Made by a program: the position numbers and the translations under genes
Part shown: positions 2,302-55,959 of the stretch, piece after piece
How the letters are laid out: each line of letters starts with the position of its first letter
How positions within the stretch are numbered: the first letter of the stretch is position 1
The notes under the pieces: generated by a model
The model's input: the letters and a program-made list of their open reading frames with translations, nothing else
Database searches by the model: none
Told to the model about the DNA's origin: nothing
NCBI GenBank assembly: GCA_030583825.1
Contig: CP129477.1
Span: 843,627-907,626, forward strand
Origin: Candidatus Dojkabacteria bacterium
Lineage (GTDB): Bacteria > Patescibacteriota > Dojkabacteria > GCA-002793355
DNA length: 64,000 bases
Reading direction: 5' to 3'

Positions 2302-3999
2302 TCACCACTGAGGCCCGCCGGAGCCGCCTTGGCCGCGGGAATAGCCGTCATCATTACGGTATCGCCCAAAGCGATTATATCTATCGCGCGCGGTCTGCTC
2401 GCCTTCCTCTATACGTTCCTCTAAATCCTGCTGATTTTCCGACGACGAAGAACCGTTGTTTCCATTAGATTGCTCTTGCTTTTGCTGGAGAGCTTCAAGC
2501 TTTTTCTTTACAAACTCGCGGTTTTCATAGGCTTTTGTGTCATTTGGATCCTTTTGTAATGCAAGATCATACGCTGCAATCGCGCGAATCCATTGTTGTA
2601 CTGTTGTTGCGGGGTCAGTTTGCTCGTAGGTTTGCCCATCGCGGTAATATGCGTTGCCCAAGTTATATGAAGCTTTTTGGGATATGTCTGAATTATTATG
2701 TTCCGCAGCGCGGGAAAGTGATTGTATAGCTTCTTTGTACAAATTAGCCCTGTAAGAAGCAACTCCAGAATTATACAGCAAACGAGGATTTTGTCCATCT
2801 TTTTGGAGGTACGTATTATAGGTCTCCTTTGCTCCAATAAATTCGTTACGAGTGTACAATAAATTTCCTTGTTGGATCCCAACTAAACTTGATACGTAAA
2901 TGATTGGTAATAAGACTACTGAAGTAAGGGAGATTGGAGCAATCTGAAAAGCTTTGGGTGTATGCTTTAAAGACACCTTCTCGTACAGCTTAAAATGAAC
3001 AACAATCAATAAAATGAGTATTATAAATGCAAAAAAGGGATATATTTCCTGCCTCAAGATACCTCCCTGGGTAAACTGCTGCTCTCTCGAAACTACCGAT
3101 ATATCAGTATGAATATTACCCCCGGGGGTATTACTGTCGTAAAACTTTCCGTTTGTTTTGTCAGCAATTTCTTCAAGTAAATCCGGCATCATTTTTGAAA
3201 CAACATCTCTTCCCTGCTCACGAATATAAAATACTTCTCCAGAACGTGACGTAAAATACGGAATTTTATCTCCGGAAGTTGACCCCACTCCAACGGTAAA
3301 GATCGGAATATCTGAGCCTGACGCGCTTGCAATTGCATCCTGGAGCTCTGCGCCATTGAGTTCTTCCCCATCCCCCAGCAAAATAATTACTTTTTGCCGA
3401 TTACTGTCGTTATTTCGAGTAAGACGCGTGACTGCTTCGGCAATGCCGGTACTCATTGAAGAACCCGATGCGTAGGTATAGTCAACAAGTCTCAGCGTCT
3501 CTATTCCCGTATGAACAGTATCAAGATCATATGTAAGAGGAACTTCGGTTGTTGCAAATGTTGTGTACGATACCAGCGCAACTCGTTCACCACTACTCTG
3601 CTCTAGAAACTTTTTCATAATATCCTGTGCTGTTTCGATGCGTGACTTTCCAAGTGAATCCTGAACTCCCATACTAAGAGAGATATCAACAACAAATGCT
3701 ACATCCAGCGATGATTGGGCTACTCTACCCTGCTCTGTCCCAAATGATGGGCGCAAAAGCATAAGAATACAGACTGTAACGATAAGGCCTATTAAAATCA
3801 TTTTTCTTATGATACTTTTGTTGAAGGGGGTTCCTACATAATTCAAAAGATGATCATACTTCTGCTCCATTTTTATAACGATGGGTCGGATCTTTACAAG
3901 CCTATACACTGCATATATTCCTACAACTACAACAAGCAAAATAGCGATCCAAATGTACCAATTTCCACTATTTGCCCAGATCATACTTTCAGCCTCCAT
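2302..3999 (-). CDS. BatB-like von Willebrand factor A domain protein with TPR repeats and a Gly/Arg-rich C-terminal tail
   Basis: VWA MIDAS-type motif DVAFVVDISLSMGVQD. TPR-like repeats (YNLGNAYYRDGQTYEQ; AAYDLALQKDPNDTKAYENR). N-terminal TM helix. The 3' end is locally GC-rich because of the GQGGSGGPQW tail. Confidence 0.6.
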   Translation of the reverse strand: MEAESMIWANSGNWYIWIAILLVVVVGIYAVYRLVKIRPIVIKMEQKYDHLLNYVGTPFNKSIIRKMILIGLIVTVCILMLLRPSFGTEQGRVAQSSLDVAFVVDISLSMGVQDSLGKSRIETAQDIMKKFLEQSSGERVALVSYTTFATTEVPLTYDLDTVHTGIETLRLVDYTYASGSSMSTGIAEAVTRLTRNNDSNRQKVIILLGDGEELNGAELQDAIASASGSDIPIFTVGVGSTSGDKIPYFTSRSGEVFYIREQGRDVVSKMMPDLLEEIADKTNGKFYDSNTPGGNIHTDISVVSREQQFTQGGILRQEIYPFFAFIILILLIVVHFKLYEKVSLKHTPKAFQIAPISLTSVVLLPIIYVSSLVGIQQGNLLYTRNEFIGAKETYNTYLQKDGQNPRLLYNSGVASYRANLYKEAIQSLSRAAEHNNSDISQKASYNLGNAYYRDGQTYEQTDPATTVQQWIRAIAAYDLALQKDPNDTKAYENREFVKKKLEALQQKQEQSNGNNGSSSSENQQDLEERIEEGEQTARDRYNRFGRYRNDDGYSRGQGGSGGPQW

Positions 4000-4961
4000 G
4001 AAGTTAATCCCAGATATACGGCAATTCCTAGCGCTGCAATAAGCAAAAACAACGTTGGTGAGTCTCTGTACTGAATTGGAGAGATCCCTTGATACGCACC
4101 TCTCTCAAGTCGGTCAATTTCATCGAAGATTGTGGCCAATTCCTTCTTGTTTTCGACAGTGTATGCCTTGCCTCCCGTTTTTTGTGCAACATTTGCCAGT
4201 GAGTCTTTTGCTCGTGATGTAAAGAATGAGCCAATATAAATTGTATATACTTTTATACCGCTCTGTGCGGCAATATCTGCTGCTTCTGATGGATCAATGC
4301 CAATATTCGACTGCCCGTCTGTAATTAAAATTGCGACTTTTGAGCGCTGTGTGCCTTGCTGAAATTTCTTTGTTGTTAAGAATAATGCGTCTCCAACAGC
4401 AGTTCCGCCTCCAGCGCTTAGCCATAAGGACTTATCCGGTGTGAGTAAATCTACATGCTCTTGAACAATGGCGTAGTCTTGCGTTAGTGGCGATAGCGTA
4501 ACAGGAACACCGGTAAATACGACTAATCCGACTCTATCCTTGCTGAGCTTCTTCAGAAATTCTGTAATGACCTCTCGTGCGGCATCAATACGGCTTGGAG
4601 GAACATCTTCGATTGTCATCGAGCCAGAAATATCAACAGTAAGCATAATATCAAGTCCGACTCTATCGTCTTCTGCAGGAGAAGCAATCATGGGGCGTGC
4701 GACCAATGCAAGTAAGGCGGCGATTGTAATAAATAGTACTGCCTTTTCAGCTATATCTTTCCAATTTTGTGTCTTTTTCTCTGTCTTTGCTCCGGCTTCA
4801 CTTTTCTTTATTTTCTTGGCAGTGGGAACAAACAACGCTCGTACGGCGCCTTTCTTGTATCGAATAATAAAATATACTGCAACTGCCGTTATTACCGCGC
4901 ATAAAATACCCCAGAGGGTATATTTAAATATCATCTTGCACACTCTTAATTGAGTTCGCAA
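3981..4961 (-). CDS. BatA-like membrane-anchored von Willebrand factor A domain protein
   Basis: N-terminal TM helix, then LTVDISGSMTIEDVPPSRIDAAREV (VWA DxSxS MIDAS motif). Overlaps the neighbouring genes, which suggests an operon. Confidence 0.6.
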   Translation of the reverse strand: MRTQLRVCKMIFKYTLWGILCAVITAVAVYFIIRYKKGAVRALFVPTAKKIKKSEAGAKTEKKTQNWKDIAEKAVLFITIAALLALVARPMIASPAEDDRVGLDIMLTVDISGSMTIEDVPPSRIDAAREVITEFLKKLSKDRVGLVVFTGVPVTLSPLTQDYAIVQEHVDLLTPDKSLWLSAGGGTAVGDALFLTTKKFQQGTQRSKVAILITDGQSNIGIDPSEAADIAAQSGIKVYTIYIGSFFTSRAKDSLANVAQKTGGKAYTVENKKELATIFDEIDRLERGAYQGISPIQYRDSPTLFLLIAALGIAVYLGLTSWRLKV

Positions 4962-5409
4962 CTATCGCAGAAAACTCTGCTCGAGTTCGCTTTTGCCACG
5001 GATATACCATGGAGTATACAAAGGCAAAAAATTGTGTAAAAGTTGGTGGAATGACTTCGGTAAGCTCTTTCCAGGTTTTTCCTAAGAGCATTTGCTGCAT
5101 TTTGCATGATAAATACCACTTTAATGCGTGATGAAATCTACTGGCAAGGTGAACAAGCTCTTCTTCCGGTACAAGAGGGATGGTATTTTCAATACTTCTC
5201 AGCTCTGTAATTGTCATATCTTTATACTCTTTGGGGAACGGAGTTTTTGTTCCTGGCCCATCGTTTTTAATCGCAGAATGTGCTGCAAGTTTCTTTTGTA
5301 GCCATCTTACGAAATATGCCATAATTGCTGAAACTACCACAATTATGATAATTAACGGCCACCAGTTTGGCCCAACAATCGTTTGTATATCGTGAATGTC
5401 GGTCATCAT
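4924..5409 (-). CDS. DUF4381-like small membrane protein
   Basis: The N-terminus MMTDIHDIQTIVGPNWWPLIIIIVVVSAIMAYFVRWLQKK matches the DUF4381 pattern (DIH..P..WWPL, then a TM helix, then basic residues). This family is typically found with MoxR/DUF58/VWA Bat-type operons. Confidence 0.5.
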   Translation of the reverse strand: MMTDIHDIQTIVGPNWWPLIIIIVVVSAIMAYFVRWLQKKLAAHSAIKNDGPGTKTPFPKEYKDMTITELRSIENTIPLVPEEELVHLASRFHHALKWYLSCKMQQMLLGKTWKELTEVIPPTFTQFFAFVYSMVYPWQKRTRAEFSAIVANSIKSVQDDI

Positions 5410-6314
5410 CTTTTTTTAGTATGCGCAAATTTACTGTAATACGCAATTACTTGTTGCAGCAAATCTTTTGTCACAGAAATCGGCATATACGGGACATGTG
5501 ACTTTTCGAATAACTCTATTGCCTGTTTTACAATGTCAGTGCTGGATTTTTCCTTTTCTTCGGGGAGGAGCATTTCTCCTGTCTCGATATCTTGGAATAC
5601 AAAAGGCATGAATTCTGCATCTGACACTGGATCAGGTGCCACTAGATGGACAATTGTTACGTCATGCTTTTTGTTTAGCGTTTTGAATGTATCAATACTC
5701 TCTTTTGTAATGTCCAATGCATCGGTGATTAAAAAGCAATATGTTTTTTTCTTTACTCCCTGCAATAAGATCTTCTTTAAAAGCTCGTGACTGGTTTGCT
5801 GAAAGTAGTTATGCTCAAATGCCTTTGCGACGGTGTTTACGATTTGTCGTGCATGTTGCTTTCCTTTTGCAAAAGGAACTACTTCTTGGACAGCGCTGTT
5901 ATAAAATACTGCTCCAAACGAATCATTATGTTGCATTGCCGCGTACGTCATAAGTGTGACAAAATCGGTAATAACATTAATTTTTTGATCATTATTTCGC
6001 GACGAAATACCCACTGACGATGATGTATCAATGACAAATAGCAACGTAATTTCTTTTTGCTCTCGAAACTGCCGAATATACACTTTCTGAGTTCGTGCCG
6101 TTGCGTTCCAGTCAATGTCTCGCACATTATCACCTGCGACATATTCGCGAAGGTCTTGTAACTCGACGCCGTGTCCTCTGTATAAAGAAGAATATGCTCC
6201 CATAAGCAACGAAACTATTTGTTTTCGGGGAGAGATTTTCAAACGTTTTAGGCTTTTTAGATATTCCGCCATATTAGGATTATGGTACTGGGATTTTTTC
6301 AAAAATCTTGTCAA
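5406..6314 (-). CDS. DUF58 family protein (VWA-like, MoxR-associated)
   Basis: The VYIRQFREQKEITLLFVIDTSSSVG motif is typical of DUF58. It lies immediately downstream of the MoxR ATPase and overlaps it. Confidence 0.55.
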   Translation of the reverse strand: MTRFLKKSQYHNPNMAEYLKSLKRLKISPRKQIVSLLMGAYSSLYRGHGVELQDLREYVAGDNVRDIDWNATARTQKVYIRQFREQKEITLLFVIDTSSSVGISSRNNDQKINVITDFVTLMTYAAMQHNDSFGAVFYNSAVQEVVPFAKGKQHARQIVNTVAKAFEHNYFQQTSHELLKKILLQGVKKKTYCFLITDALDITKESIDTFKTLNKKHDVTIVHLVAPDPVSDAEFMPFVFQDIETGEMLLPEEKEKSSTDIVKQAIELFEKSHVPYMPISVTKDLLQQVIAYYSKFAHTKKR

Positions 6315-7266
6315 TTGCCCACTCTGTTGTCACTCCTTCTGCCTCAGCTTCGTAACTTAAAATCAGACGATGGCGTAATACATCGTGGCGAACTTCGCGG
6401 ATATCTTCAGGGATAACATAGTTTCGCCCTGCCAATAATGCGGCAATTTTCGAGACTTTCATGAATGCAAGTGTCCCACGAGGAGAACTTCCGAACTGCA
6501 CTGTTTGAGTCAGCTCATTTAGTCCGTAATTTCCAGGTGTTCGTGTAGCTTGAACGATCGCAGCAATATATTCTTTCAGTTTTGGATCAATATAAACCTG
6601 TTCAGTGATGTTCTGAATTTTCTCGATATCTTTTGTGTGAGCGACAACTTTCGCAGTAATTTCTTCAGGTTCATCTTCCAGCAGGTCAATGATCTTGAGC
6701 TCTTCTTGCAATGTTGGATACGTAATAACAGTCTTAATTAAAAAGCGGTCAATTTGGGCTTCTGGCAGTGGATACGTTCCTTCCTGCTCGATGGGATTTT
6801 GTGTTGCAAGTACAAAAAACGGCTTTGGCAACTCGTATGTCGTATCTCCGATAGTTACTTGCTTTTCCTGCATCGCTTCAAGCAGCGCAGACTGAACTTT
6901 TGCCGGCGCACGGTTGATTTCATCAGCAAGAACAAAGTTAGCAAATACTGGGCCTTTCTTAACAATGTAAGAGCTTTCCTTTGGATTGAATACGAGGTTT
7001 CCGGTAATGTCAGACGGTAGTAAATCCGGCGTAAACTGAATACGCTTGAAAGTACTGTCAATGCTGCTCGCAAGCATTTTTATTGAGCGAGTCTTTGCAA
7101 GGCCTGGAACTCCTTCCAATAAAATGTGGCCTTTTGCACACAATGCGAATACAAGTCGGGAAATAAGCATTTCTTGGCCAATAATGTGGCGCGATAACTC
7201 AGTAGTTATTTTGTTTAAGACTTCCGATGCTTCAACAAGTTGTTCGTTTGTTGGGGGCTGTTTCAT
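6280..7266 (-). CDS. moxR: MoxR-family AAA+ ATPase
   Basis: HILLEGVPGLAKTRSIKMLASSIDSTFKRIQFTPDLLPSDITG and VLADEINRAPAKVQSALLEAMQE are canonical MoxR/AAA_3 motifs. Size ~328 aa. Confidence 0.75.
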   Translation of the reverse strand: MKQPPTNEQLVEASEVLNKITTELSRHIIGQEMLISRLVFALCAKGHILLEGVPGLAKTRSIKMLASSIDSTFKRIQFTPDLLPSDITGNLVFNPKESSYIVKKGPVFANFVLADEINRAPAKVQSALLEAMQEKQVTIGDTTYELPKPFFVLATQNPIEQEGTYPLPEAQIDRFLIKTVITYPTLQEELKIIDLLEDEPEEITAKVVAHTKDIEKIQNITEQVYIDPKLKEYIAAIVQATRTPGNYGLNELTQTVQFGSSPRGTLAFMKVSKIAALLAGRNYVIPEDIREVRHDVLRHRLILSYEAEAEGVTTEWAIDKIFEKIPVP

Positions 7267-25137: not shown

Positions 25138-26745
25138 ATGGCAGATATGCAATCTTTAGAAACTAAGTCGGCACAACCGGTGCAAAACAATATAGGTGAC
25201 CTCGAAGGTATTTTAGAGGCGCGTCCTCCTTTAGGAAATCGCCATTCTTCTTCACGAAAACCCAACGAAGCCGCAACACTCAACTATTTTGACCTGAACA
25301 ATGAAGAGGCTCGTGAGCGAGCCTTACACATACAGGAATCACTCCGCAGGCAACATTTCCATAAAGTCCACACAATGTACGAAGCATTTGAGACAGAACC
25401 AGGTGCTGTAAACGCTTTGAGACGAGATACTGTTAATAACATTGCTGCAATGCAGTGGTTTCCTAGGCACTCTCAAGAAGCACAAGAATACTTCGAGGAG
25501 ATGGTTCCAGACGAAGATCTTCGTAAACAAATTCAGCTTCATTACAGTGAATTCTTCACATATGTTCATAGAGAAGTCGCCCGAGCAGTACTTTCGCCTC
25601 GAAAGTGTGAAACAATGTTTGCCGACAAAGGACTCTTGAGCAGAATTAGAAAGAACCTTCCAGCGCATCTTATTCCTGCTGCAGAAGAACTCACAGAACA
25701 GCTTATTGATGACTACTATCAACAGCTAAACAACCTCATTGACGAAGAAAAGCTCGCAAAATATGAACAAAATGTTTGTTACGAGCTAGATTGGTACGAT
25801 GATGGCTATAGCCTACACAAGAGAAAAAGAAATATTATTTTGCTTAACGGCCCAGTTGGCTCAGGAAAAGGAACGACGCTTGAACAATTAGAAGCTGAAG
25901 CTGTAGAAACAGGAACTGCCGGTATTGCCGGACGTGGTGGACAATCAAAAGAAAAACGCGATAAATTAGAAGGTGGCCCAAACAGATACGATCGTTGGGA
26001 ATATGTTTCCGGCGGACTTGACCGTTCACGCAAAAAGCAGAGACGAATTCCTGACCGCGTTATGCGTATGTGGCTTGCAATGGAACTTATGCAAAAGCGT
26101 GGAGAGCTTGATGCAGAAGGAAAATTCGACGAGCCTATTTATATCTCGGGTTATCCTCGCGAGGTTGATCAAACAAAACTCTTTGCGCATCTTGACCAGG
26201 AGCAAGTTGTTTCTGTGTATATGGAAATTTCTGAACAGGAAGCAGCAACGCGAACGCTAAGCCGCATGATTGAGCAAAGTGTCGCAACTGCAATGGATGC
26301 AAGAGCTATTGAAAATGCTGAGCTTTCTCGTGCAGAAAAAGATGCAAGACTTGCAAAGTTGGAATATTACCGCGGAGATGACTTTAAATCTTTGGACTTT
26401 TCAAATGCTCCAGAAGTTAGACAGATGATCTTGCGGTTTAATAAAGACATGCTTGCTGCGTTGCAAATCGTAGATCCACACGGGAAAATAGAGTTGAAAA
26501 AACTACAGGAAAAAATTAAAAAAGCAATTTTTGAGAATCACAAGGCAGCGATTGAACAGCTATTGCTGGCACGTGGAGACGAAGGTCATAAAGGAGAAGC
26601 TCGATATCACCTCGACATGCGCAACAAAAGGTCTATTATTGAAGCATCCGAGTCAATGGGTATTGAAACAATTATCGTTCAATGTGACGGTAAAGCCCCA
26701 CCGCAGGTAACTGAAGAAGTGGCACAATATGTCCGCGCAGCCTAA
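25138..26745 (+). CDS. hypothetical protein (535 aa) with an embedded adenylate/NMP-kinase-like P-loop domain
   Basis: NIILLNGPVGSGKGTTLEQLEAE is an NMP-kinase-type P-loop. Then VSGGLDRSRKK (compare AK ISTGDMLR) and PIYISGYPREVDQTKLF (compare AK GFLLDGFPRT). These are flanked by a ~230-aa N-terminal and ~170-aa C-terminal extension with no recognisable motifs. Confidence 0.45.
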   Translation: MADMQSLETKSAQPVQNNIGDLEGILEARPPLGNRHSSSRKPNEAATLNYFDLNNEEARERALHIQESLRRQHFHKVHTMYEAFETEPGAVNALRRDTVNNIAAMQWFPRHSQEAQEYFEEMVPDEDLRKQIQLHYSEFFTYVHREVARAVLSPRKCETMFADKGLLSRIRKNLPAHLIPAAEELTEQLIDDYYQQLNNLIDEEKLAKYEQNVCYELDWYDDGYSLHKRKRNIILLNGPVGSGKGTTLEQLEAEAVETGTAGIAGRGGQSKEKRDKLEGGPNRYDRWEYVSGGLDRSRKKQRRIPDRVMRMWLAMELMQKRGELDAEGKFDEPIYISGYPREVDQTKLFAHLDQEQVVSVYMEISEQEAATRTLSRMIEQSVATAMDARAIENAELSRAEKDARLAKLEYYRGDDFKSLDFSNAPEVRQMILRFNKDMLAALQIVDPHGKIELKKLQEKIKKAIFENHKAAIEQLLLARGDEGHKGEARYHLDMRNKRSIIEASESMGIETIIVQCDGKAPPQVTEEVAQYVRAA

Positions 26746-44658: not shown

Positions 44659-45426
44659 ATGGATATTATTCAACTTGAACTAGGGGTGTATCTCTTTCTT
44701 GTCGGACTTCTTATTTCGGAATTTATCCAAGTGCTTGTTGATAGAGACAACAATTCTTCTTCCATTTTTGACCGCTCTCGTTGCGATCATTGTAAAAAGC
44801 CTGTTCCGTGGTATGGCATGGTTCCCTTGTTTGGATATTTTCTTGTAAAAGGAAAATGTATTCACTGTGGTAAGAAAATTTCTTTAAACTACCCTCTTTT
44901 TGAATGGTCGTTTGCAATTATGTGGGCAGCCACCTTAATTCTTATTCCTCACACAATTATTTCTGCACTGATTTTTCTGTCCATACTTTGTGTTGTGTGG
45001 TATCTTGCCTACTACGACCTAAAACAGTTTGAAGTGCCCGTTATCGCGCTTGTTGTCTTTGGAATACTTCTTGGAATCTTTCACTTATTTGTGATGCCGC
45101 TTAGGCTTGATGTCGTTTCAGTGCTCTTAATGGCTCTTATCATCGTGGTTGCCATTGTTGCTGTCATGTTTCAAAAGCAAGACGCAGCATTTAGTGAGCT
45201 ATTTGGCCTTGCCGACTGGATCGTCATTTTGGCAACTGCCCTTCTCTTTGGTATAGAAGCGACAGTTATTGTTATCTGTATCTCTGTTGGAATATTTGTT
45301 CTTTACTTATTGCTTTCGTTTGGATTGAAACTCAAACAAATGAAAGGCGTCCCCTTTCTATTCTGGTATCTGCCGATTTGGTACTGGTACTTGCTTTATC
45401 TGACCACAACAGTAATTGTTCGCTGA
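44659..45426 (+). CDS. pilD: prepilin peptidase (A24 family)
   Basis: CDHCKKPVPWYGMVPLFGYFLVKGKCIHCGKKISLNYPLFE (CxxC...CxxC zinc motif) and a multi-TM aspartyl peptidase body. Confidence 0.75.
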   Translation: MDIIQLELGVYLFLVGLLISEFIQVLVDRDNNSSSIFDRSRCDHCKKPVPWYGMVPLFGYFLVKGKCIHCGKKISLNYPLFEWSFAIMWAATLILIPHTIISALIFLSILCVVWYLAYYDLKQFEVPVIALVVFGILLGIFHLFVMPLRLDVVSVLLMALIIVVAIVAVMFQKQDAAFSELFGLADWIVILATALLFGIEATVIVICISVGIFVLYLLLSFGLKLKQMKGVPFLFWYLPIWYWYLLYLTTTVIVR

Positions 45427-46106
45427 ACATTCTGCACTGTTGGGCGTCCATTCATCTGAAGCTTTGAATCAAGCTTGAACGCCACAGATACTGTGGTAAA
45501 TGTTTGCCCGGTAAGGCTGTCGCTTGCAGTTTCGCACGAAAGTTGAATATCTTTTACATTGACATCTCCATACGTAAGAACTGAGCGCACGGCTGTTCCT
45601 GCCTGAGGTTTTTGAATAAAGATAAATCGGCCAGTATTTAGTCCTATGTCTGCAACTTCATAGCCGAATGTATATGTTTCTCCCGATCCTAAAGGCTGCC
45701 AGGTCACAGAGTTTACGGTGAATGTATTTGGTCGCAATGCTGATCCATTACACATGTTTATTGCTGTATTTTGGCCAACAACAACAAGTGTTCGAGGATC
45801 TGCGTTCTTTGCGTATAGCTCGAAAAATTCTGAAACAAATTCTCCCTCTGTTCTCACGGATGTTCGGGCATCAATCATGTAGGAACCAAGCAAAATTGCG
45901 TTAAACGACTGCATAATCATTAAAAAGATAATAGAAAGTATTGTCATAGAGATTAATGTTTCAGCAAGTGACAATGCCGCAATCTTCTGGAATCTCTCTT
46001 TGAGTGTTTGGTGTTTTGTTACGTGCTCCATGCTAGTTTGTACCTGTTCTGTAAACATAAATAGTAAGGACAACCGGTTTGTAGTCTGCAGGAAGGCACT
46101 GCCCAT
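45396..46106 (-). CDS. putative minor pilin/pseudopilin
   Basis: IAALSLAETLISMTILSIIF is a class III signal-like segment (A|LSLAE with E at +5). The ORF start is uncertain. Confidence 0.45.
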   Translation of the reverse strand: MGSAFLQTTNRLSLLFMFTEQVQTSMEHVTKHQTLKERFQKIAALSLAETLISMTILSIIFLMIMQSFNAILLGSYMIDARTSVRTEGEFVSEFFELYAKNADPRTLVVVGQNTAINMCNGSALRPNTFTVNSVTWQPLGSGETYTFGYEVADIGLNTGRFIFIQKPQAGTAVRSVLTYGDVNVKDIQLSCETASDSLTGQTFTTVSVAFKLDSKLQMNGRPTVQNVQRTITVVVR

Positions 46107-46644
46107 TTATACAGGCTACAGTGACTGTAAACTGAGCGAACGATCCCGTTCCTGATGCGAGCTGTCGCAATTCAATTAAACGGCCAAATAAAGCATCTGA
46201 GCCTGTTTGGCTTACTGCTGTAACAGAGCATGAACTGTCAAATGTCTGGTCTGAGCGTAATCCACATGTTTGTGTCATTGTTGTGAGAGATGCAATTTTG
46301 TTACTTCCCTGCTGTGTGTATGTGACATAGGCTCGCCCATTAACTGATCTGAATACTCCCGATGGGCCGATAAGTCCATTCCATGATTCGTCTTTCTCTT
46401 TTTTGATAATTTCTACTCCTTCGTTGGCAAGTGTTAACATTCTATCCTGTAATTCGAGCTTTTTTACTTGTCGCAATGCTGCAAATGTCGTGTTAAGAAC
46501 TGATACAAAGACGAGCGATACAATAGCAAGTGCAATCAAAACCTCAACAATGCTTAGCGCAAGCACTTTCCTTTTAATTGTTGATTGCGGAGATGTTTCC
46601 ATCTGTTCGAATGGTAATTTTAGTGCTTGAAAAATTTGTTCCAA
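46033..46644 (-). CDS. putative minor pilin/pseudopilin
   Basis: RKVLALSIVEVLIALAIVSLVF (A|LSIVE with E at +5). Confidence 0.5.
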   Translation of the reverse strand: MEQIFQALKLPFEQMETSPQSTIKRKVLALSIVEVLIALAIVSLVFVSVLNTTFAALRQVKKLELQDRMLTLANEGVEIIKKEKDESWNGLIGPSGVFRSVNGRAYVTYTQQGSNKIASLTTMTQTCGLRSDQTFDSSCSVTAVSQTGSDALFGRLIELRQLASGTGSFAQFTVTVACINGQCLPADYKPVVLTIYVYRTGTN

Positions 46645-47209
46645 TGTCTAATCCCCCAAGGCTTGTAATATCTTGAGTGCCACAATACACAACAGGCGTG
46701 CCGTTGACAGATTTAAACATGACACGCATTCTGCTTCCGGTTCCTGTACAAATTGCGGCTCCATTTGGTCTATAAAATGCAAATGTCGCATTTGAATCAA
46801 TCACTCTAACGTCGCTGGAACGATTAAAGTTATAGTTTGAGATATTTGCCGGGTACGGAATATAAAAGGTATTACTTTCAAGGTTTGGAGTGCTATGCTG
46901 TAGCTTGACTGTGTAATATGTCCATTGTTGAAGCGCATTATCAAATGCAATTTCTATACCGACAGCATGAACCCAGTTTTCATTCACATCTTTTGTAATA
47001 AGCATTGAGGAGCGCCGTGCGCTTCGTGCTGTAACAACAACTTCTTTGAGTATTTGTCCGGAAATAAAGACGTTTCGAGTGTTTGCTCCCAGTACTAATG
47101 CGATCAGAAAAAGCATAGAAGTAATAAGCATGACAATCAATAACTCTATCATTGTGAACGCTTTTACGTTGTACTTTTTCTGTCCAGAGACAGGGGGCAT
47201 ATCCTTCAT
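46574..47209 (-). CDS. putative minor pilin/pseudopilin
   Basis: KKYNVKAFTMIELLIVMLITSMLF (A|FTMIE with E at +5). Confidence 0.55.
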   Translation of the reverse strand: MKDMPPVSGQKKYNVKAFTMIELLIVMLITSMLFLIALVLGANTRNVFISGQILKEVVVTARSARRSSMLITKDVNENWVHAVGIEIAFDNALQQWTYYTVKLQHSTPNLESNTFYIPYPANISNYNFNRSSDVRVIDSNATFAFYRPNGAAICTGTGSRMRVMFKSVNGTPVVYCGTQDITSLGGLDIGTNFSSTKITIRTDGNISAINN

Positions 47210-47217
47210 GTATTGAC

Positions 47218-47772
47218 TTAAAATTCGACTTTTACGTTCTTTTTCTCTTCCTCATCTGCTGCAAAGAATTCTGCTGGCTTGAAGTTCATATAACTTGCAA
47301 CAAGTACGTTTGGAAAGATTTCTAGCTTTACATTGTATTCACGAACATTTGCATTGTAGAATCGTCGTGATTTCTGAATTTCTGTTTCCAACTCTCCAAG
47401 ATCAACCTGCAACTTGAGGAATGACTCGTTTGCTTTCAATTCCGGATAGTTTTCTGATACAGCAAACAAAGTCTTCAATGCCGATGTCATCTGATTGTTA
47501 ATTTGCGACATCTCTTCGATTCCTGCAGCGTTACCCATTTGTGAGCGAAGCTCTGTAATTCTCTCAAATACTTCTTTTTCATGCTTTGCGTATCCTTTTA
47601 CGACACTTACCAAGTTTGGAATAAGGTCGAAACGCTTTTTCAACAGTGTCTCGATATCTGATGCAGACTCTTTGACATTTGTTCTTAGTTGAACCAATGT
47701 GTTATATACGGCAACAAGCCACATTGCGATACATGCAATGAGTGCTATAAGTCCAAGTCCTAATACCAACAT
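47218..47772 (-). CDS. lemA: LemA family protein
   Basis: N-terminal TM helix, then NTLVQLRTNVKESASDIETLLKKRFDLIPNLV, the typical LemA core. Confidence 0.7.
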   Translation of the reverse strand: MLVLGLGLIALIACIAMWLVAVYNTLVQLRTNVKESASDIETLLKKRFDLIPNLVSVVKGYAKHEKEVFERITELRSQMGNAAGIEEMSQINNQMTSALKTLFAVSENYPELKANESFLKLQVDLGELETEIQKSRRFYNANVREYNVKLEIFPNVLVASYMNFKPAEFFAADEEEKKNVKVEF

Positions 47773-47779
47773 ACTATTT

Positions 47780-50473
47780 TTAATTGATTAGATTATTATC
47801 TTGATTATCGGGAGAATTTGTCATTGTGTCAATGATTGTATCAATATTCACATAGTCGGGATGGTTGCCTGACTGTGCTTGCACCTCAAGCATGTAACGT
47901 GCGATATTTGCTTCAATATAATCCTGAATTGCGCGCTTTAGTGGACGCACTCCCATTCCCGGGTTATATCCAATATCTGCAAGAAAGTTTATTGTTCGTT
48001 CTGAGTACTCTGCGGTGATTCCCTGCAATGCGAGTTTGCCGACAAGCTCGTTAAGATTCAGAATACAAATTTCAACAATGTGGTCGCGTGTGAGAGGTTC
48101 AAAAATAATGGTTTTATCAAAACGGTTGATAAATTCCGGGCGGAAGTATTCGGGTAACATGTTTAGCACTGTTTCTTTTGCCTGATTATATTCTTCAGGT
48201 GGCGCGTTGAGTAACAGATCACTTCCAATGTTGCTTGTACAAATAATAATTGAGTTATTAAAATAAAGATTATCACCTTTTTCGGTAACAATGACGCCTT
48301 CATCGAACAAGCGAAGGAACATGTCCAAAATGAATTGCGGTGCTTTCTCGATTTCATCTAAAAGCAAAAGCGAGTATGGGCGGACAGTCACCTTTTCAAG
48401 AATTTTCATAATTGAAGGCATGTCTGCAGCGGTTTTAAATTGTGACAAGTCAACTCGGATAACAGAATAGTCTCCTCCGAAATATTCTCGCGCAGTTATT
48501 TTTGCAAGTTCGGTTTTTCCAACACCTGTTGGCCCAAGAAACATAAATACTGAGATAGGACGTTGAGTGTTTCTCAGCATTGTTTGCGCTCGTTGCAATG
48601 CCTCAACTATAGCCCGGACTGCTGAGTCTTGGTTTACATATTTCTCGTGAATTTTGTCTTCCAGGTTTAAGAGTGTATGAGCCGAGCCTTGAGACGCTGC
48701 AATTGTTGGTATCTTTGTTATTTCTGATATTGTTTCACGCACAATTTCTCTTGTGAGCTTTTTCTCTGGTTTTCTCGAAGCAAGTATGACTGCCTGATCT
48801 AAAACTTCTACAGCTTTCTTAGGGAATCGCTTGTTTGGCATATAAATCTGTGTCATTTTTAAAATCTCTCCAAGTGCTGGGAAACTAATAAAGGTGTTGT
48901 ATTGCTTTTCATACTCTTCTACTTTTGTTGCGAGTATCGAGTATGTGTCTTCTGTGCTTACTTCATCCACTCGAACAATGCTGAAACTTTGCAAAATGGA
49001 CGGATATTGTTTCTCAAAATCATTATATTGCGCATATGTCATCGTTCCCACAATTGGGACGGGACTCTGAATTAAAAGTGGAAGCAAATATGAAATTGTC
49101 GAGCCTTGACCTGTCCCTGTTGTCACGAGTACTTCGAGCTCATCAAAGAAAAGAATTGTTCCTACCTGATTTTTGAGCTCGACAGAAAGCTTTTCGATAA
49201 GTGCAGATACCCCACCAAGGTCATTCCCTACTGATAAGAATCTGTTAATATCAATTGTTTTAATAATCAATCCGCGAAGTGATGGTGGAACATCGCCTTC
49301 AATAATCTTTTGTGCTAATCCCCAAATAATACTGCTCTTTCCAACCCCTGGGTCTCCAACTAAAATCGTGTTTGCATCATAACTTTTTTGTAAAATGCTC
49401 ATTAAATAATTAATCTCTTTTGTATGGCCAATTCCGTAAAGACCACCTCTCTCAGAGATAATTTCAGTAATGTTTGATGAAATTTTATCCAGATAAAACG
49501 TATAGCCTTTTACCCATGAGTCAACAATTCCGCCTTTCTGATAATATGGCTGTTTCAGATTAAACATATTGGTACGGCCTTTGAATTGCTCAGTAATAAT
49601 GTACCATTCGATAATCTTTTCGAATGTTGTCATGTCTACCTGGTATTGCTTGAGTACGTCTTTTAACACAGGGAACATATGAAACATAGCGAGAAGTATG
49701 TGTTCTGGATAGACTTGAAAGCTTTTTGTCGCAATTGCCTGTTCCAATGCGTACAGCAAGAACGACTGCATTGCCATAAATGGGAATGTCGGAGCAGAGT
49801 CATCGGTAATAGGCACTTGGAGCAATGCTTCTCCTGCGTCATCAATTTCAAGGCGTTTTAGAATTCTCTGTGTATGTTCATGTTTCACAACAAACTGCAG
49901 AAGCTTCTGAGTATTACACTCATAACCCTCGCGTGAATGAACAATTGCTTCGTATAAAATCTTCTTTGTCATTGGGTGGAAATATTCCAACGGGTCTTTA
50001 AGCTTAAAATGTGAGAACTGCATTGTATTTTGGCTTATACTTTCAGCGATGAAATCGTCCATCACGGGGTAACGCGTTAGCAGTTTAGGCGCGTCATATG
50101 TTGTTGCAAGGTCATGCCACAGAACTAAAATTGCAAGCGCTGCAAGGTACACGACTTCTTTTGCGAAGATGATAAATAAATCAGGAAGTCCGCTTACCCC
50201 AACACCAAAAAGATTCATGACGTATAGTGCACCCATCGGGATTGCAAGTACTAATATGCCAGTGGCAATCATTCTTTTTAGTCGTTTAAATACTTCACGC
50301 GCTTTGTGGTAACGAATTTCTTCTTCAAGTTTCTCAAGAACAACGGTGAAAATATCAAATTGCGTGACAATAAATGGCTCAAACGAAGAATCAAGTACGA
50401 CGGCATAGTTATTATATACTTGCATCTGGTTTGTTATTTTGTCTTTGTATGCGGTAATCGCGGCTTTTGTCAT
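47780..50473 (-). CDS. membrane-anchored Hsp100/Clp-family AAA+ ATPase (two AAA modules, no M-domain)
   Basis: N-terminal ~130 aa with two TM helices (ATGILVLAIPMGALYVMNLF; VVYLAALAILVLWHD). Then Clp_N-like repeats, D1 ILVGDPGVGKSS and D2 [16 protein letters not shown] with LLLDEIEKA and the sensor [10 protein letters not shown]. Only a short D1-D2 linker. No obvious (I/V)G(F/L) ClpP-docking tripeptide after the TSNIGS segment. Confidence 0.6.
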   Translation of the reverse strand: MTKAAITAYKDKITNQMQVYNNYAVVLDSSFEPFIVTQFDIFTVVLEKLEEEIRYHKAREVFKRLKRMIATGILVLAIPMGALYVMNLFGVGVSGLPDLFIIFAKEVVYLAALAILVLWHDLATTYDAPKLLTRYPVMDDFIAESISQNTMQFSHFKLKDPLEYFHPMTKKILYEAIVHSREGYECNTQKLLQFVVKHEHTQRILKRLEIDDAGEALLQVPITDDSAPTFPFMAMQSFLLYALEQAIATKSFQVYPEHILLAMFHMFPVLKDVLKQYQVDMTTFEKIIEWYIITEQFKGRTNMFNLKQPYYQKGGIVDSWVKGYTFYLDKISSNITEIISERGGLYGIGHTKEINYLMSILQKSYDANTILVGDPGVGKSSIIWGLAQKIIEGDVPPSLRGLIIKTIDINRFLSVGNDLGGVSALIEKLSVELKNQVGTILFFDELEVLVTTGTGQGSTISYLLPLLIQSPVPIVGTMTYAQYNDFEKQYPSILQSFSIVRVDEVSTEDTYSILATKVEEYEKQYNTFISFPALGEILKMTQIYMPNKRFPKKAVEVLDQAVILASRKPEKKLTREIVRETISEITKIPTIAASQGSAHTLLNLEDKIHEKYVNQDSAVRAIVEALQRAQTMLRNTQRPISVFMFLGPTGVGKTELAKITAREYFGGDYSVIRVDLSQFKTAADMPSIMKILEKVTVRPYSLLLLDEIEKAPQFILDMFLRLFDEGVIVTEKGDNLYFNNSIIICTSNIGSDLLLNAPPEEYNQAKETVLNMLPEYFRPEFINRFDKTIIFEPLTRDHIVEICILNLNELVGKLALQGITAEYSERTINFLADIGYNPGMGVRPLKRAIQDYIEANIARYMLEVQAQSGNHPDYVNIDTIIDTMTNSPDNQDNNLIN

Positions 50474-50859
50474 GGAACAAGAAATGGATTGAGTAAAATC
50501 ATTGCAATAATGAGGGGCAAGAGAATAAGCTGAAGAAGAATAACTAATAACAGTGCTCCGTTTGCAACAATAACAACAAAGCCTGCAACGGGAATATACA
50601 CAGTTTTAAGAAACATTCCGACAACCCAACCGGCAATATTATAGTCATTTCGCCAGGGCTTTAAATATCCTTTGAGAATAATCGGCAAAGAAGTGGAGTC
50701 TAACAATACGATATTAATTCTTTTGAGAATGCCGAGCAGATATGTGGGAATATCAACATACCACCAGAGAATAAAATCCTGGACAAAGGACAAATGAAGG
50801 CCGGCGTAATCAAAGATTGTTGTTGACTTCTTCTGGGACAGCATGGGCAGCATCGTCAA
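50470..50859 (-). CDS. small hypothetical membrane protein
   Basis: ORF with two or three hydrophobic helices. Overlaps its neighbours. Confidence 0.3.
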   Translation of the reverse strand: MTMLPMLSQKKSTTIFDYAGLHLSFVQDFILWWYVDIPTYLLGILKRINIVLLDSTSLPIILKGYLKPWRNDYNIAGWVVGMFLKTVYIPVAGFVVIVANGALLLVILLQLILLPLIIAMILLNPFLVP

Positions 50860-53535: not shown

Positions 53536-55959
53536 ATGGAAGGAGAAAGAATAGACATTCTGCAGTTTTTCTCGCAGAAAGCAAAAGAAATGCTTGCATT
53601 GGCAATTGAGCGTGCCCAGTTGCGTAACAGCTCATTTGTTGACACGGAAGATTTATTGTTAGAGCTCACAAAATCCAGCGAATTGGTACAACGTATTTTA
53701 AAAGAGCTGAAAGTTGACGTTTCATTATTAGAAGAATATCTCGAAAATAACTTGCCTACTGTGCGAAACGCCGGCGAAGGGTTAGATTTATCTCCGCGTA
53801 TGAAGCAGGCGTTACAGCTTGCATTTCAGGAATCTCGAGAACTTGGTCACTCATACGTTGGCCCAGAGCATATGTTGTTGGGTATTATTCGCGAACAGGA
53901 CGGATTTGGAGCACGAACACTTGCAAAATATGATGTTACATTGATTAATGCTCGACAGGCTGTGCAGAAAATTGTTGGAAAAGGCGATGAATCCGGTCAG
54001 GAGTCATCTGAGAAAACAAATACTCCTACATTGGACAAATATTCACGAAATCTTACCGCACTTGCGCAGAAAGGGAATATTGACCCCGTTATTGGCCGTA
54101 ATGACGAAATTACCCGTTTGATTCAGATTCTCATCCGTAGAAGGAAAAATAATCCGGTACTTATTGGTGAGCCTGGAGTCGGAAAAACCGCAATTGCTGA
54201 AGGTCTTGCCCATAGAATTTTAAGCGATGGCGTTCCAGACGAGCTAAAAGGTAAGGTTGTGAAAGAGTTAGATCTTGGCGCGCTTATTGCAGGAGCAAAG
54301 TTTCGTGGAGAATTTGAAGAACGCGTAAAAAAAGTTATTGAAGAGTTACAAAAATCTAGCGGAAGCATCATTTTATTCATTGACGAATTGCACACCGTTG
54401 TAGGTTCGGGTGCACAGGAAGGACAAATGGATCTTTCAAACATGCTAAAACCTGCCCTTGCCCGTGGCGAGTTTCAGATTATCGGTGCAACTACTCTTTC
54501 TGAGTATAAAAAGTATATCGAAAAAGATGCTGCTTTAGAGCGACGTTTTCAGCCAATTCTCGTAGAAGAACCAACAGTCCAGGCAACAATTGGCATGCTT
54601 GAAGGAGTTCGTGACCGTTACGAAGCATTTCACAAAGTCAAAATTGAGAGTACCGCGATTGAGCAAGCCGCCCACCTTTCCGATCGTTACATAAAAGACC
54701 GATTTCTGCCTGATAAAGCATTTGATGTGTTAGACGAGGCATGTAGCGTTGTAAAAATGGAGTCTCAGTATGAGCCAAACGACCTTCGTGAACTAAAGCA
54801 GCAAATTGCAGGACTTGAAAAAGAGCGTGAATCGTTGACGAGGTCACAACAGTTTGAAGAAGCCGCAAAAATGAAGCAGGAAATTGAGCATTTGAAAGAG
54901 AAATTGGCACCTGTAGCCGAGGAATGGGAAAAAACGAAGTCAAGGGGCACCCCCGTGGTTACACCTGCCATAATCGCCACTGTATTAGCTAAAATGACCG
55001 GTATTCCAGTATCCCAATTACAGCAAGAAGAGCGTCAAAAACTACTTGAATTAGAGAAGGTGCTTCATAGCCGCGTTATTGCTCAAGATGAGGCTATACA
55101 GGCCGTTTCAGAGGCCATACGACGTGGCAGAGTGGGCCTTGGGGATCCAAACCGCCCAATTGCGTCATTTTTGTTTCTTGGGCCGACAGGAGTTGGTAAA
55201 ACAGAGCTTGCAAAAGCACTGGCCGAGTTTGTATTTGGTGACGAAGAAGCAATTATTCGCATTGATATGAGCGAATATATGGAACAGCACAGCGTTGCAA
55301 AGCTTATTGGCTCTCCTCCGGGATATATTGGCTACGAAGAAGGTGGTCAGCTTACAGAAAAAGTCCGACGTATGCCCTACTCTTTGATTTTGCTCGATGA
55401 AATTGAAAAAGCTCATCCAGATGTTTTGAATATCTTACTGCAACTTTTGGACGATGGACGGTTAACAGACGCAAAAGGCCGCACCGTGGACTTCAAAAAT
55501 ACTGTTGTGATTGCTACCAGTAACCTTGGCGCTCACTTTATTGTTGAGTTTCTCAAGCAAAAAGAGCGAAAGCCCGGTGAATGGGATGGTGTCAAAAAAC
55601 AAATTGGCGAATTATTGAAGAGGCACTTTAGGCCAGAATTTTTAAATAGAATTGACGATGTCATTATTTTCCATCCATTGGAGATTGCCCATATTGAGGG
55701 AATTGTTGCAATGCAGCTCGATCGCGTTCGCAGAATGCTTGAGGCACAAAAAATTACCGCAACATTTGAACAAAGCCTGATTGAACATATTGCCGATACT
55801 GGCTTTGATCCAGAATTTGGGGCACGTCCATTGAAACGAGCCATTCAGAAAGAAGTCGAAAATGAACTGTCAAATATGATTTTGTCAGGGAAGGTTAAGG
55901 AAGGTGATGAGATAAGTGTGGGGTTTGTGAAAGGAAAAGTTGTTGTTAAAGGGAAATAA
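53536..55959 (+). CDS. clpC: ATP-dependent Clp ATPase ClpC-like (Hsp100)
   Basis: Two Clp_N repeats, D1 [19 protein letters not shown], a short coiled-coil linker, D2 [19 protein letters not shown], and the sensor [10 protein letters not shown]. 807 aa. Confidence 0.8.

Follow-up and report, generated by a model that had tools for sequence, protein, structure and literature searches.

A membrane-anchored tandem-AAA Clp/Hsp100-like ATPase encoded next to a small membrane protein in Dojkabacteria and other Patescibacteria

Hsp100/Clp proteins are soluble motors that thread polypeptides with tyrosine pore loops, and a coiled-coil M-domain defines ClpB, Hsp104 and the regulation of ClpC. To our knowledge, all known Hsp100 relatives work on polypeptides via an axial channel. 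The Plasmodium PTEX complex (Hsp101-PTEX150-EXP2) couples the function of an Hsp100 ATPase to an assembly embedded in the membrane; Hsp101 does not span the membrane itself and has retained its pore loops. Torsins are eukaryotic Clp-D2-like AAA+ proteins that are membrane-associated, have no aromatic pore loop and work with transmembrane partners. They consist of a single, luminal AAA module without an arginine finger of its own, which is supplied by LAP1 or LULL1. FtsH, Msp1/ATAD1 and Bcs1 are ring ATPases tethered to the cytoplasmic or matrix face of a membrane by an N-terminal transmembrane (TM) anchor; of these, FtsH has pore-loop aromatics as well as a protease domain, while Bcs1 performs membrane AAA+ work without classical threading. 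We know of no Clp_N domain or tandem ring in any of these three.

Here the analysis covers a window of 64,000 nucleotides from a Candidatus Dojkabacteria bacterium, in which a membrane-anchored relative of these motors is encoded. The features of the locus are as follows, numbered from the first letter of the window, with the supporting evidence in brackets.

50470..50859, minus strand: small membrane protein, predicted partner of the ATPase, 124-129 aa depending on the start (synteny, fusions)
47780..50473, minus strand: membrane-anchored double-AAA Clp/Hsp100-like ATPase, whole ORF, 897 aa (Pfam, NCBIfam, PDB, AF2, Foldseek)
50273..50473, minus strand: N-terminal cytoplasmic cap (N-cap), aa 1-67 (AF2 strands, conserved residues)
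50117..50272, minus strand: transmembrane helical hairpin of TM1, outer loop and TM2 (hydropathy, alignment, AF2)
49574..50056, minus strand: divergent Clp_N-like helical N-domain, about aa 140-300, with a PEHxLLA repeat motif (profile similarity)
48704..49441, minus strand: D1 AAA module and lid, about aa 345-590 (alignments, motif table)
47864..48676, minus strand: D2 AAA module and D2-small domain, about aa 600-870 (Pfam, alignments, motif table)
48383..48436, minus strand: site of the deleted D2 pore loop, aa 680-697 (BLASTP gap, HMMER gap, family alignment, AF2)
47218..47772, minus strand: LemA-family protein with an N-terminal TM helix and a LemA domain (Pfam LemA, E 7.8e-56)
45396..47209, minus strand: three overlapping pilin-like (minor pilin) ORFs at 46574-47209, 46033-46644 and 45396-46106 (N_methyl, leader motif)

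Architecture and membrane anchor of the ATPase

An earlier reading of the locus from the sequence alone had described a membrane-tethered Hsp100 without M-domain or IGF loop, distinct from a soluble ClpC in the same window. This architecture was borne out, as were the extent of the 897-aa ORF and its two AAA modules, which were recovered by Pfam, NCBIfam, PDB sequence search and Foldseek. The Pfam matches (AAA_2, 2.6e-31; ClpB_D2-small, 4.6e-17; AAA_lid_9, 1.9e-9) correspond to the class I Clp/Hsp100 tandem of AAA with AAA_lid_9 and AAA_2 with ClpB_D2-small. The best PDB sequence match was ClpB (1qvr, E 2.4e-94), and the top Foldseek matches of the predicted structure, a model with a pTM of only 0.56, were ClpC, ClpB and ClpA. 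The separate canonical ClpC was identified by Pfam and NCBIfam as a second, ClpC-type paralogue at 53536-55959 on the plus strand. The 897-aa protein derives from type-II Clp/Hsp100 proteins: N-cap, TM hairpin, Clp_N-like domain, D1 and D2 follow one another along the chain, with a ClpA-like spacing between D1 and D2.

The two N-terminal TM helices proposed earlier were upheld by hydropathy, modelling and conservation. TM1 (aa 68-88) and TM2 (aa 98-119, ending in a near-invariant LW(H)D motif) are separated by an outer loop of 9 aa, with Kyte-Doolittle (KD) peaks at about aa 65-93 and 96-125; AF2 places helices at 46-88 and 98-123, connected by a loop of 9 aa. In 19 homologues with identities down to 31%, both segments stayed hydrophobic (mean KD 1.0-2.8), the hairpin loop measured 4-10 aa with 0-2 K/R, and the flanks held 3-8 and 1-6 K/R. 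A short loop poor in K/R between K/R-rich flanks indicates, by the positive-inside rule, an N-in/C-in topology. On this pattern a helical hairpin fixes the ATPase in the membrane, and its two termini and all of its globular domains are predicted to be cytoplasmic.

Ahead of the hairpin, the modelled N-cap forms a small beta-rich unit (aa 1-45, strands at 6-11, 17-19, 31-36 and 40-43) followed by the start of a long helix, and residues K12, F34 and T37 were near-invariant or invariant in the family alignment. Other Patescibacteria lineages carry a CxxC...CxxC zinc ribbon in place of the N-cap. Since a conserved 67-aa cytoplasmic cap precedes the TM helices, the start codon was not mis-called; with the N-terminal 120 aa conserved in every homologue, the TM segments do not stem from a mis-called start or from an assembly artefact.

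The Clp_N-like repeats of the earlier reading stood only in part: similarity to ClpC N-domains was found at profile level, but Pfam Clp_N gave no match at E<=0.01. Positions 165-287 of the family profile were collinear with the N-domain of related Dojkabacteria ClpC (E 2e-6 to 1e-8, the value of 2e-6 coming from a search against all locus ORFs). Against PDB sequences, the only match of the N-terminal profile (E 0.018) was to the Clp_N protein ClpC2, and one distant family member has a precomputed Pfam Clp_N match. Together these three observations support a putative, divergent Clp_N domain.

Motif content of the two ATPase rings

The two AAA modules differ in what they retain. D1 keeps Walker A (GDPGVGKS) and Walker B (FFDELE); its pore-loop Tyr is gone, the position reading NDLGGVSA, as are its arginine fingers (ARGE replaced by IQSPV and RRFQ by LQSFS). 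In D2, Walker A (GPTGVGKT), Walker B, sensor-1 (TSN), the Arg finger (NRFD, R784) and sensor-2 (GVRPLKR) were all conserved. The D2 pore loop G-x-P-P-G-Y-(V/I)-G-Y-E-E-G-G is missing, leaving a gap of 13-14 aa in BLASTP, HMMER and the family alignment, and AF2 models a single continuous helix (682-697) at the site. The aromatic pore loop 1 of class I Clp/Hsp100 proteins (KYRG in D1, GYVG in D2) is absent from both ATPase rings.

A motif table of about 75 family members gave the same picture. Across the table, the D1 pore Tyr and RR fingers were absent, and the D1 Walker B was variable, drifting to DD, DN, EN or HN in relatives. D2 conserved its Walker A and Walker B together with TSN, NRFD and GAR, and its GYVGY loop was deleted or aromatic-free, being G/S/D/E-rich in relatives; one relative, P0168, kept a Tyr in this loop and some fused forms kept GxPPG remnants.

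The lack of an M-domain and of a ClpP-docking (I/V)G(F/L) loop, both suspected from the sequence, could be put in numbers. From the RRFQ position of D1 to the D2 Walker A the protein measures 155 aa, compared with 216-223 aa in ClpC and 281 aa in ClpB. The segment of D2 from sensor-1 to the Arg finger spans 42 aa and contains no [IVLM]G[FLM], compared with 54 aa including LGF in the ClpC reference.

D2 would be the working motor, since the family preserves its Walker A, Walker B, sensor-1, Arg finger and sensor-2. D1 probably binds nucleotide but would serve as a degenerate scaffold ring, given the missing arginine fingers and the drift of Walker B in relatives. With pore-loop Tyr, M-domain and ClpP loop all missing, we infer that the ATPase is neither a ClpP-coupled unfoldase nor a DnaK-coupled disaggregase, and it is probably not a canonical hand-over-hand polypeptide threader. 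Loss of the Tyr is not proof of lost translocation, since other pore-facing residues could substitute.

Gene neighbours and competing explanations

The stop codon of the gene directly upstream overlaps the start of the ATPase gene (ATGA), and an ATG at 50853 or 50844 is a more likely start for it than the TTG at 50859. Its product has the motif WWY...R...D..S...F.PW(K/R/H)xD..G..G followed by a hydrophobic C-terminal part of ~50 aa. It had no match in Pfam, NCBIfam, PADLOC or PDB, and a Pfam scan of 16 members of its family at E<=1 returned nothing meaningful. In structure models made from database homologues of the small protein, AF2 gave an all-helical fold (pLDDT 76.9) with one 53-residue helix. 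All 22 complete Dojkabacteria loci had a homologue just upstream of the ATPase, as did six of seven more distant loci checked (L024-L027, L029 and L030); in the seventh, P0161, it was fused to the ATPase N-terminus. Among distant relatives found from the ATPase side, it was upstream in five of six, the sixth being P0161. Fusion to the ATPase N-terminus was seen in at least 11 cluster representatives (P0161 and at least 10 others), the hydrophobic stretches of fused forms covering about 41 to 87 aa. In the reverse test, a Magasanikbacteria homologue of the small protein was located 13 nt before a gene for a TM-anchored Clp-like protein of 930 aa that shows the same degeneracies. Neighbourhood clustering returned the small protein as the only universally adjacent family. 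Thus in the loci checked the ATPase is encoded directly after, or fused to, a membrane protein of ~120 aa from an undescribed family. Fusion and conserved gene order suggest that the two may form a complex, and that the pair is under selection.

The ATPase has 25 full-length homologues (880-905 aa, identity from 91% down to 31%), beyond which scores drop sharply to canonical Clp proteins. The N-terminal profile, searched against 1.84 billion representatives, retrieved only 19 at E<=1e-30, with a tail of TM-anchored Clp-like proteins of 800-915 aa. The GTDB taxa of the homologues are Dojkabacteria and Patescibacteria. No family model was found for the ATPase, and neither a TM-anchored Clp nor the small protein was found described in a literature search; the words "Clp" and "AAA" are absent from Meheust et al. 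2019 (main text). Homologues are publicly annotated as "ClpC", "ClpA" or "ATP-dependent Clp protease ATP-binding subunit", names that are misleading because the ClpP loop is missing. We propose a new family comprising the TM-anchored Clp-like ATPase and the WWY/PWxD small membrane protein.

On the downstream side, the earlier reading had placed lemA and three minor pilin genes beside the ATPase. These do adjoin it, but the conserved neighbour is the small upstream ORF. The lemA gene lies 7 nt downstream on the same strand, followed on that strand by the three pilin-like ORFs, with Pfam N_methyl in the first and a pilin leader motif in all three. The idea of a LemA and membrane-Clp pairing did not survive a comparison of loci: a single Dojkabacteria clade, with 8 distinct loci, had lemA directly downstream, and no LemA was found in the fetched loci of other Dojkabacteria clades or of seven more distant relatives, so that LemA was rejected as a conserved partner. 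The pilin-like ORFs are likewise conserved beside the ATPase only in this near clade. In the literature on LemA, a function has been characterised only for its MamQ relatives. The adjacency of lemA and the pilin genes is local synteny outside the conserved system, and possibly local co-expression.

The functional tie suggested earlier, in which the membrane Clp and LemA would extract, unfold or recycle pilins or prepilins in the membrane as pilus-linked quality control, therefore finds no support in comparative genomics, its adjacency being clade-restricted, and we consider it improbable. Its appeal lies in the near clade (52-91% identity), where the ATPase is co-directional and tightly packed with lemA, the three pilin-like genes and the PilD-pilin-PilC-PilT/B cluster, and in the fact that pilins are membrane-embedded before assembly, within reach of a membrane-anchored ATPase. 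A second Dojkabacteria clade has PilM/N/O 2-3.5 kb downstream, and type IV pilus (T4P) genes within a few kb in two clades keep a pilus link conceivable there. The second clade, however, has other T4P genes, which lie on the opposite strand beyond NusB, RNase III, S16 and KhpA, and the ATPase and its small neighbour are conserved without T4P genes in L006, L015, L022 and 7/7 more distant Patescibacteria loci. Chance could plausibly account for the proximity, given that Patescibacteria have small genomes rich in T4P genes. A promoter-like match (11/12) at 47832-47804, just upstream of lemA, suggests that lemA and the pilin genes may form a separate transcription unit. It was the one feature noted in a scan whose promoter and terminator counts were no higher than the shuffled expectation (23 vs 21.4 and 9 vs 6.3). 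Nor does the loss of both pore-loop tyrosines sit easily with an extraction of pilins by threading. That same loss, family-wide, weighs on a broader proposal that we hold to be unlikely, namely a threading dislocase or unfoldase for membrane proteins in the manner of FtsH or Msp1, which would use non-canonical channel residues and pass its substrate to a separate protease or release it. Axial-channel action is general among known Hsp100 relatives, a Clp_N-like domain (a substrate- and adaptor-binding module) is retained, D2 appears fully competent by its motifs, and the anchoring resembles that of FtsH and Msp1. Yet in the window's clade the D2 loop is deleted, with a continuous helix modelled in its place, D1 has lost its arginine fingers, and the ATPase has neither a protease domain nor a ClpP-docking loop. 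An inert pseudo-ATPase or scaffold, or a decaying ClpC paralogue merely tethering something to the membrane, would fit the clear degeneration of D1 and the far relatives P0125, P0127, P0132, P0134 and P0140, in which D2 motifs are also missing; it is very improbable, as every D2 catalytic motif is strictly conserved in the window protein and most of the family down to ~25-30% identity, and each locus carries an intact, full-length ORF.

The explanation that we regard as reasonably probable is a Patescibacteria-wide two-component membrane AAA+ machine, with D2 as its motor and D1 as a degenerate scaffold, that neither partners ClpP nor threads canonically. By homology, the ATPase would assemble as a hexamer on the cytoplasmic membrane face, and its 12 TM helices would join those of the small protein in one intramembrane assembly. 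ATP hydrolysis in D2 would then drive a conformational change in the small protein and the membrane module or, alternatively, in a client bound via the Clp_N-like domain and N-cap, and could serve a membrane remodelling, gating or assembly role common to Patescibacteria. More tentatively, and with considerable doubt, the pair may be a previously unrecognised Patescibacteria-wide membrane motor, an Hsp100 chassis repurposed for non-threading work in a ~24-helix assembly driven by D2. If so, candidate jobs would be the gating or assembly of a membrane complex, or the movement of lipid, protein or nucleic-acid cargo that would serve a reduced, host-dependent lifestyle, and the pair would represent a new functional class of AAA+ machine rather than a proteostasis factor. 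In this lineage, an Hsp100 chassis has been anchored in the membrane, has discarded both pore loops and the D1 arginine fingers, and has been tied to a small protein in split or fused form. Should the motif inference hold, the Hsp100 scaffold would be convertible to non-threading work, as with torsins in eukaryotes. The two genes offer a testable module, seemingly widespread in a very large and poorly understood bacterial radiation.

Comparison with described AAA+ systems

Every score was far under its NCBIfam equivalog or exception cut-off, so membership in ClpA (TIGR02639, 323.5 bits vs 993), ClpB (363.9 vs 1232), ClpV/TssH (282.8 vs 885), ClpK (299.6 vs 1900) or ClpG (281.2 vs 1900) is not indicated; the annotated parts of the window showed no T6SS genes. 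The ClpA score and the missing loop also argue against a standard ClpA/ClpE ortholog with a ClpP loop. An anti-phage defence role was rejected, because the housekeeping ClpC of the window scored equally or higher (Dodola DolB, 96.8 bits vs 96.3 for the ATPase; PDC-M37B, where ClpC also outscored it) and PADLOC returned no matches for the small protein or LemA.

In domain order the ATPase resembles ClpA (putative Clp_N, D1, D2 with D2-small, ~155-aa D1-D2 spacing, no M-domain), and the NCBIfam ClpA model matched it continuously over aa 348-870, compared with two stretches for the ClpB model. It differs from ClpA in lacking the IGL/IGF loop, the pore-loop tyrosines and the D1 arginine fingers and in adding the N-cap, the TM hairpin and a small membrane protein as putative obligate partner. 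Its best sequence and fold matches are to ClpB/Hsp104 and ClpC, and its sensor-1 to Arg finger segment is of ClpB-like length without IGF; unlike these proteins, it has no coiled-coil M-domain and no pore loops and is membrane anchored. Neither the short M-domain for MecA/McsB docking nor the VGF loop that characterize ClpC was present (155 vs 216-223 aa).

FtsH, Msp1/ATAD1 and Bcs1 share with it an N-terminal membrane anchor on a ring ATPase but belong to another AAA clade (classical, single ring). PTEX likewise combines an Hsp100 ATPase with a membrane assembly, although its partners are unrelated to the WWY/PWxD protein. The torsins offer a parallel in the absence of an aromatic pore loop, in membrane association and in a putative transmembrane partner, and weak precomputed Pfam Torsin matches were present on D2 of second-clade members. 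The ATPase described here differs from them in its two modules, its D2 Arg finger (R784) and its predicted cytoplasmic topology, so that the resemblance to torsins is one of analogy and not of membership.

Architecture and membrane hairpin of the TM-Clp ATPase

The interval 47218-50473 consists of two minus-strand ORFs separated by 7 nt, the larger of which encodes a membrane-anchored Clp/Hsp100-like protein with two AAA modules, D1 and D2 (hereafter TM-Clp ATPase). The ORFs considered with it are:

47780-50473, minus strand: TM-Clp ATPase, 897 aa (ORF call)
47218-47772, minus strand: LemA-family protein, 184 aa (Pfam LemA, E 7.8e-56)
50470-50859, minus strand: small membrane partner, 129 aa, its stop lying within the TM-Clp ATPase start (ATGA overlap)
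53536-55959, plus strand: ClpC-type paralogue with Clp_N repeats and a ClpC-like M-domain spacing of 216 aa

Pfam placed AAA_2 at aa 638-787 (E 2.6e-31), ClpB_D2-small at aa 794-870 and AAA_lid_9 at aa 506-589 of the TM-Clp ATPase, with generic AAA matches covering the first P-loop (~aa 370). The nearest NCBIfam models were ClpB (364 bits), ClpA (323), ClpK, ClpV and ClpG, every score being 3- to 7-fold too low for the curated cut-offs. ClpB, ClpC and ClpA were also the closest solved structures, both in sequence searches and in a Foldseek comparison of the AF2 model (pLDDT 78.8; E about 1e-44 to 1e-36), and identity to the ClpC-type paralogue in the window was 29%. The structural observations of the sequence-only reading, namely a TM hairpin, a Clp_N-like region, two AAA modules and the lack of an M-domain and of a ClpP loop, were all borne out.

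Hydropathy peaked at aa 65-93 and aa 96-125, where AF2 models two helices (46-88 and 98-123) joined by a loop of 9 residues; the N-terminal part of the paralogous ClpC has no such peaks. Across 19 homologues (91% to 31% identity), both segments stay hydrophobic, the loop joining them has 4-10 residues with 0-2 K/R, and the 20 residues ahead of the hairpin carry 3-8 K/R, which together indicate a predicted N-in/C-in topology with next to nothing outside. Residues 1-67, before TM1, include conserved K12, F34 and T37 and are modelled by AF2 as a small beta unit, so the start codon is correct; with the hairpin kept in all 19 homologues, the TM helices are genuine and a mis-called start is ruled out. 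This cap is a beta-rich unit in Dojkabacteria, whereas in other Patescibacteria lineages (P0181, P0199, P0205 and the ORF at 5376-8168 of L030) it is a CxxC...CxxC zinc ribbon. In the family alignment a near-invariant LW(H)D motif closes TM2, the outer half of which (aa 98-106; window ~50156-50180) bears conserved polar or charged residues: K104-E105 in the window protein, K-(E/Q)-E in the Dojkabacteria clade that includes it (the near clade) and N...N in a second Dojkabacteria clade. Such residues inside TM2 are unusual for a simple anchor.

No Clp_N call was made in the Pfam scan of the TM-Clp ATPase. A family profile covering residues 1-345 aligned collinearly, over positions 165-287, with the N-domains of related Dojkabacteria ClpC proteins (E about 2e-6 when run against every locus ORF), taking in the PEHxLL(A/G) repeat motif. 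Among PDB sequences the profile matched only ClpC2, a protein consisting of Clp_N alone (E 0.018), and for P0181, a remote member, Clp_N is among the precomputed Pfam matches. These results support assignment of the N-domain as a divergent Clp_N.

Degenerate D1, conserved D2 and lost pore loops

Motifs were compared in pairwise and HMM alignments, a 19-sequence family alignment and a motif table of ~75 TM-anchored relatives. D1 has SVGNDLGGVSAL, which contains no aromatic residue, in place of the pore-loop motif AGAK(Y/F)RGEFEER, and the arginine-finger positions are changed from ARGE to IQSPV and from RRFQ to LQSFS. Walker A is retained, and Walker B is DE in the window protein and DD, DN, EN or HN in relatives. 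The catalytic set of D2 is conserved nearly family-wide, specifically Walker A (GPTGVGKT), Walker B (LLDEIEKA), sensor-1 (TSN), the arginine finger (NRFD, R784) and sensor-2 (G[AV]RPxxR). The D2 pore loop, G-x-PPGY(V/I)GY, is gone in the clade of the window protein (a 13-14 aa gap, modelled by AF2 as a single continuous helix, 682-697) and is aromatic-free and rich in G/S/D/E in other clades. The roles of the pore-loop, Walker and arginine-finger motifs are established in ClpB, ClpA and Hsp104. On these grounds D2 would be the active motor and D1 a nucleotide-binding scaffold, and canonical tyrosine-mediated threading of polypeptides would be unavailable to the TM-Clp ATPase.

The M-domain is missing: the D1 'RRFQ' position and the D2 Walker A lie 155 aa apart in the window protein and 155-157 aa apart in all but one of 14 further family members examined (the exception, P0150, has 164), where ClpC has 216-223 aa and ClpB has 281 aa, and the NCBIfam ClpA model aligns in one unbroken stretch. 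So is the ClpP-docking loop, as no [IVLM]G[FLM] occurs between the D2 sensor-1 and arginine finger of family members, a segment of 41-46 aa compared with 54 aa including LGF in the ClpC reference. The tripeptide is likewise missing from this segment of the ClpC-type paralogue, which may therefore not dock ClpP either; the top NCBIfam model for this paralogue is ClpB, under cut-off (1005.7 vs 1232 bits).

An obligate small membrane partner and clade-limited neighbors

The gene directly upstream encodes a small membrane protein without a match in Pfam, NCBIfam, PADLOC or PDB. Its longest ORF (TTG at 50859) shares 50 nt (50810-50859) with the 3' end of an RsmD-like methyltransferase gene. An identical public protein starts 2 residues further in, and the alignment of homologues opens at M6, which makes the ATG at 50853 or the one at 50844 the probable true start. 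Among 23 related loci (L001-L023) gathered by context look-ups and a GTDB scan, a homologue lies directly upstream of the ATPase, overlapping it or only a few nt away, in 22/22 that are complete there, including one overlooked by the gene caller (L006). The homologues share the motif WWY...R...D..S...F.PW(K/H)(N/R)D..G..G followed by a hydrophobic C-terminal half, and when all neighbouring ORFs were clustered without supervision, no other family proved adjacent in essentially every locus.

The pairing extends to distant relatives. Searching 1.84 billion representatives with the N-terminal profile gave only 19 close relatives at E<=1e-30 and, with weaker scores, TM-anchored Clp-like proteins of 800-915 aa belonging to other lineages. 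Loci were fetched for six of these (L024-L029): a small ORF is directly upstream in five (L024, L025, L026, L027 and, uncalled, L029), and in the sixth (P0161, L028) the small-partner domain is fused to the ATPase N-terminus in a single continuous ORF. An HMM of the small protein, run on all collected proteins, found N-terminal fusions in at least 11 cluster representatives; the small-protein family itself comprises at least 165 clusters, each labelled 'hypothetical'. The reverse search from the small protein reached a Candidatus Magasanikbacteria member, in locus L030, followed 13 nt on by a 930-aa Clp-like gene whose product combines two TM segments and a zinc ribbon with an aromatic-free D2 loop and a D1 that has degenerated (Walker B IHNIHE). 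Genomic pairing or fusion is thus obligate. That the two genes stay adjacent in deeply diverged lineages and have fused repeatedly argues strongly for a functional complex, which is probably also a physical one.

By GTDB record titles and source names, the close family belongs to Candidatus Dojkabacteria (WS6), and the wider family to 'Patescibacteria group' and Magasanikbacteria. One member comes from a contig of 2959 bp (L023, JAQUCU010000285.1) assigned to a Desulfuromonadaceae bin; this is probably a mis-binned Patescibacteria contig and no evidence of the family beyond the radiation. A soluble ClpC-type paralogue occurs near the TM-Clp ATPase in every genome with enough context, so the latter is an addition to ClpC, not a replacement.

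The neighbors downstream are less constant. LemA, paired with the ATPase in the sequence-only reading, is encoded directly 3' of it in near-clade loci alone (the window, L001, L003, L008-L013 and the duplicate contigs L002 and L004; L012 and L003 carry one and the same protein on different contigs); it is in none of the fetched loci of other Dojkabacteria clades and in 0/7 more distant relatives (L024-L030), so the pairing did not hold across the loci fetched. Shortly before lemA, within the last part of the ATPase reading frame, the minus strand carries a sigma-70-like promoter match (11/12, TTGACA-17-GATAAT; a consensus match only) at 47804-47832, so that lemA and the pilin genes might be transcribed as a separate unit; promoter-like counts overall were not above shuffled expectation. 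Near-clade relatives have an extra ~615-aa ORF between lemA and the pilin-like genes (L003 10284-12131, with equivalents in L008-L013), without a Pfam match and found neither in the window nor in L001.

Elsewhere in the window, a Bat/MoxR-VWA-like cluster occupies 2302-7266:

6280-7266, minus strand: MoxR-type AAA_3 ATPase
5406-6314, minus strand: DUF58 protein
3981-4961, minus strand: VWA protein
2302-3999, minus strand: VWA+TPR protein

The large ORFs at 276-2108 (minus strand, 610 aa) and 25138-26745 (plus strand, 535 aa) had no Pfam match at E<=1e-4.

Proposed mechanism and relation to known AAA+ systems

The TM-Clp ATPase would form a hexameric ring on the cytoplasmic face, with a cycle driven by D2 on a D1 scaffold and coupled either to the membrane module or to a client held by the Clp_N-like domain and N-cap; such coupling would proceed without classical threading. 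A dislocase that threads in a non-canonical manner would have to work through pore loops devoid of aromatic residues, and we consider it unlikely, if worth keeping in mind. An inert scaffold would sit beside a D2 catalytic set retained nearly family-wide and is very improbable indeed.

The pilin quality control or extraction suggested earlier draws on the near clade, where pilin-like ORFs, PilD, pilin, PilC and PilT/B are encoded close by. The second clade instead has PilM/N/O, encoded on the other strand beyond NusB, RNase III, S16 and KhpA, and T4P genes were not found in L006, L015, L022 or 7/7 more distant loci. As LemA and T4P adjacency is clade-limited, a pilus tie is unsupported as a conserved function and a pilin-directed role seems distinctly improbable; a lineage-specific connection, in Dojkabacteria alone, is possible.

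PADLOC matches to DolB and PDC-M37B were rejected as a defence identity, being generic Clp homology, since housekeeping ClpC scores equal or higher. A literature search found no paper describing the system. The architecture and the partner stand on firm ground, and specialists in AAA+ proteins would not have expected them; the function is still inferential. In layout the TM-Clp ATPase is closest to ClpA, neither having an M-domain, and in D2 sequence to ClpB and ClpC, but it fails the defining features of the named Clp subfamilies (ClpP loop, M-domain, pore loops and equivalog cut-offs). Torsins are Clp-D2-like, membrane-associated, devoid of pore aromatics and partner-dependent; they, like the membrane AAA+ machines FtsH, Msp1 and Bcs1, offer a functional analogy to the TM-Clp ATPase rather than a family to which it belongs.
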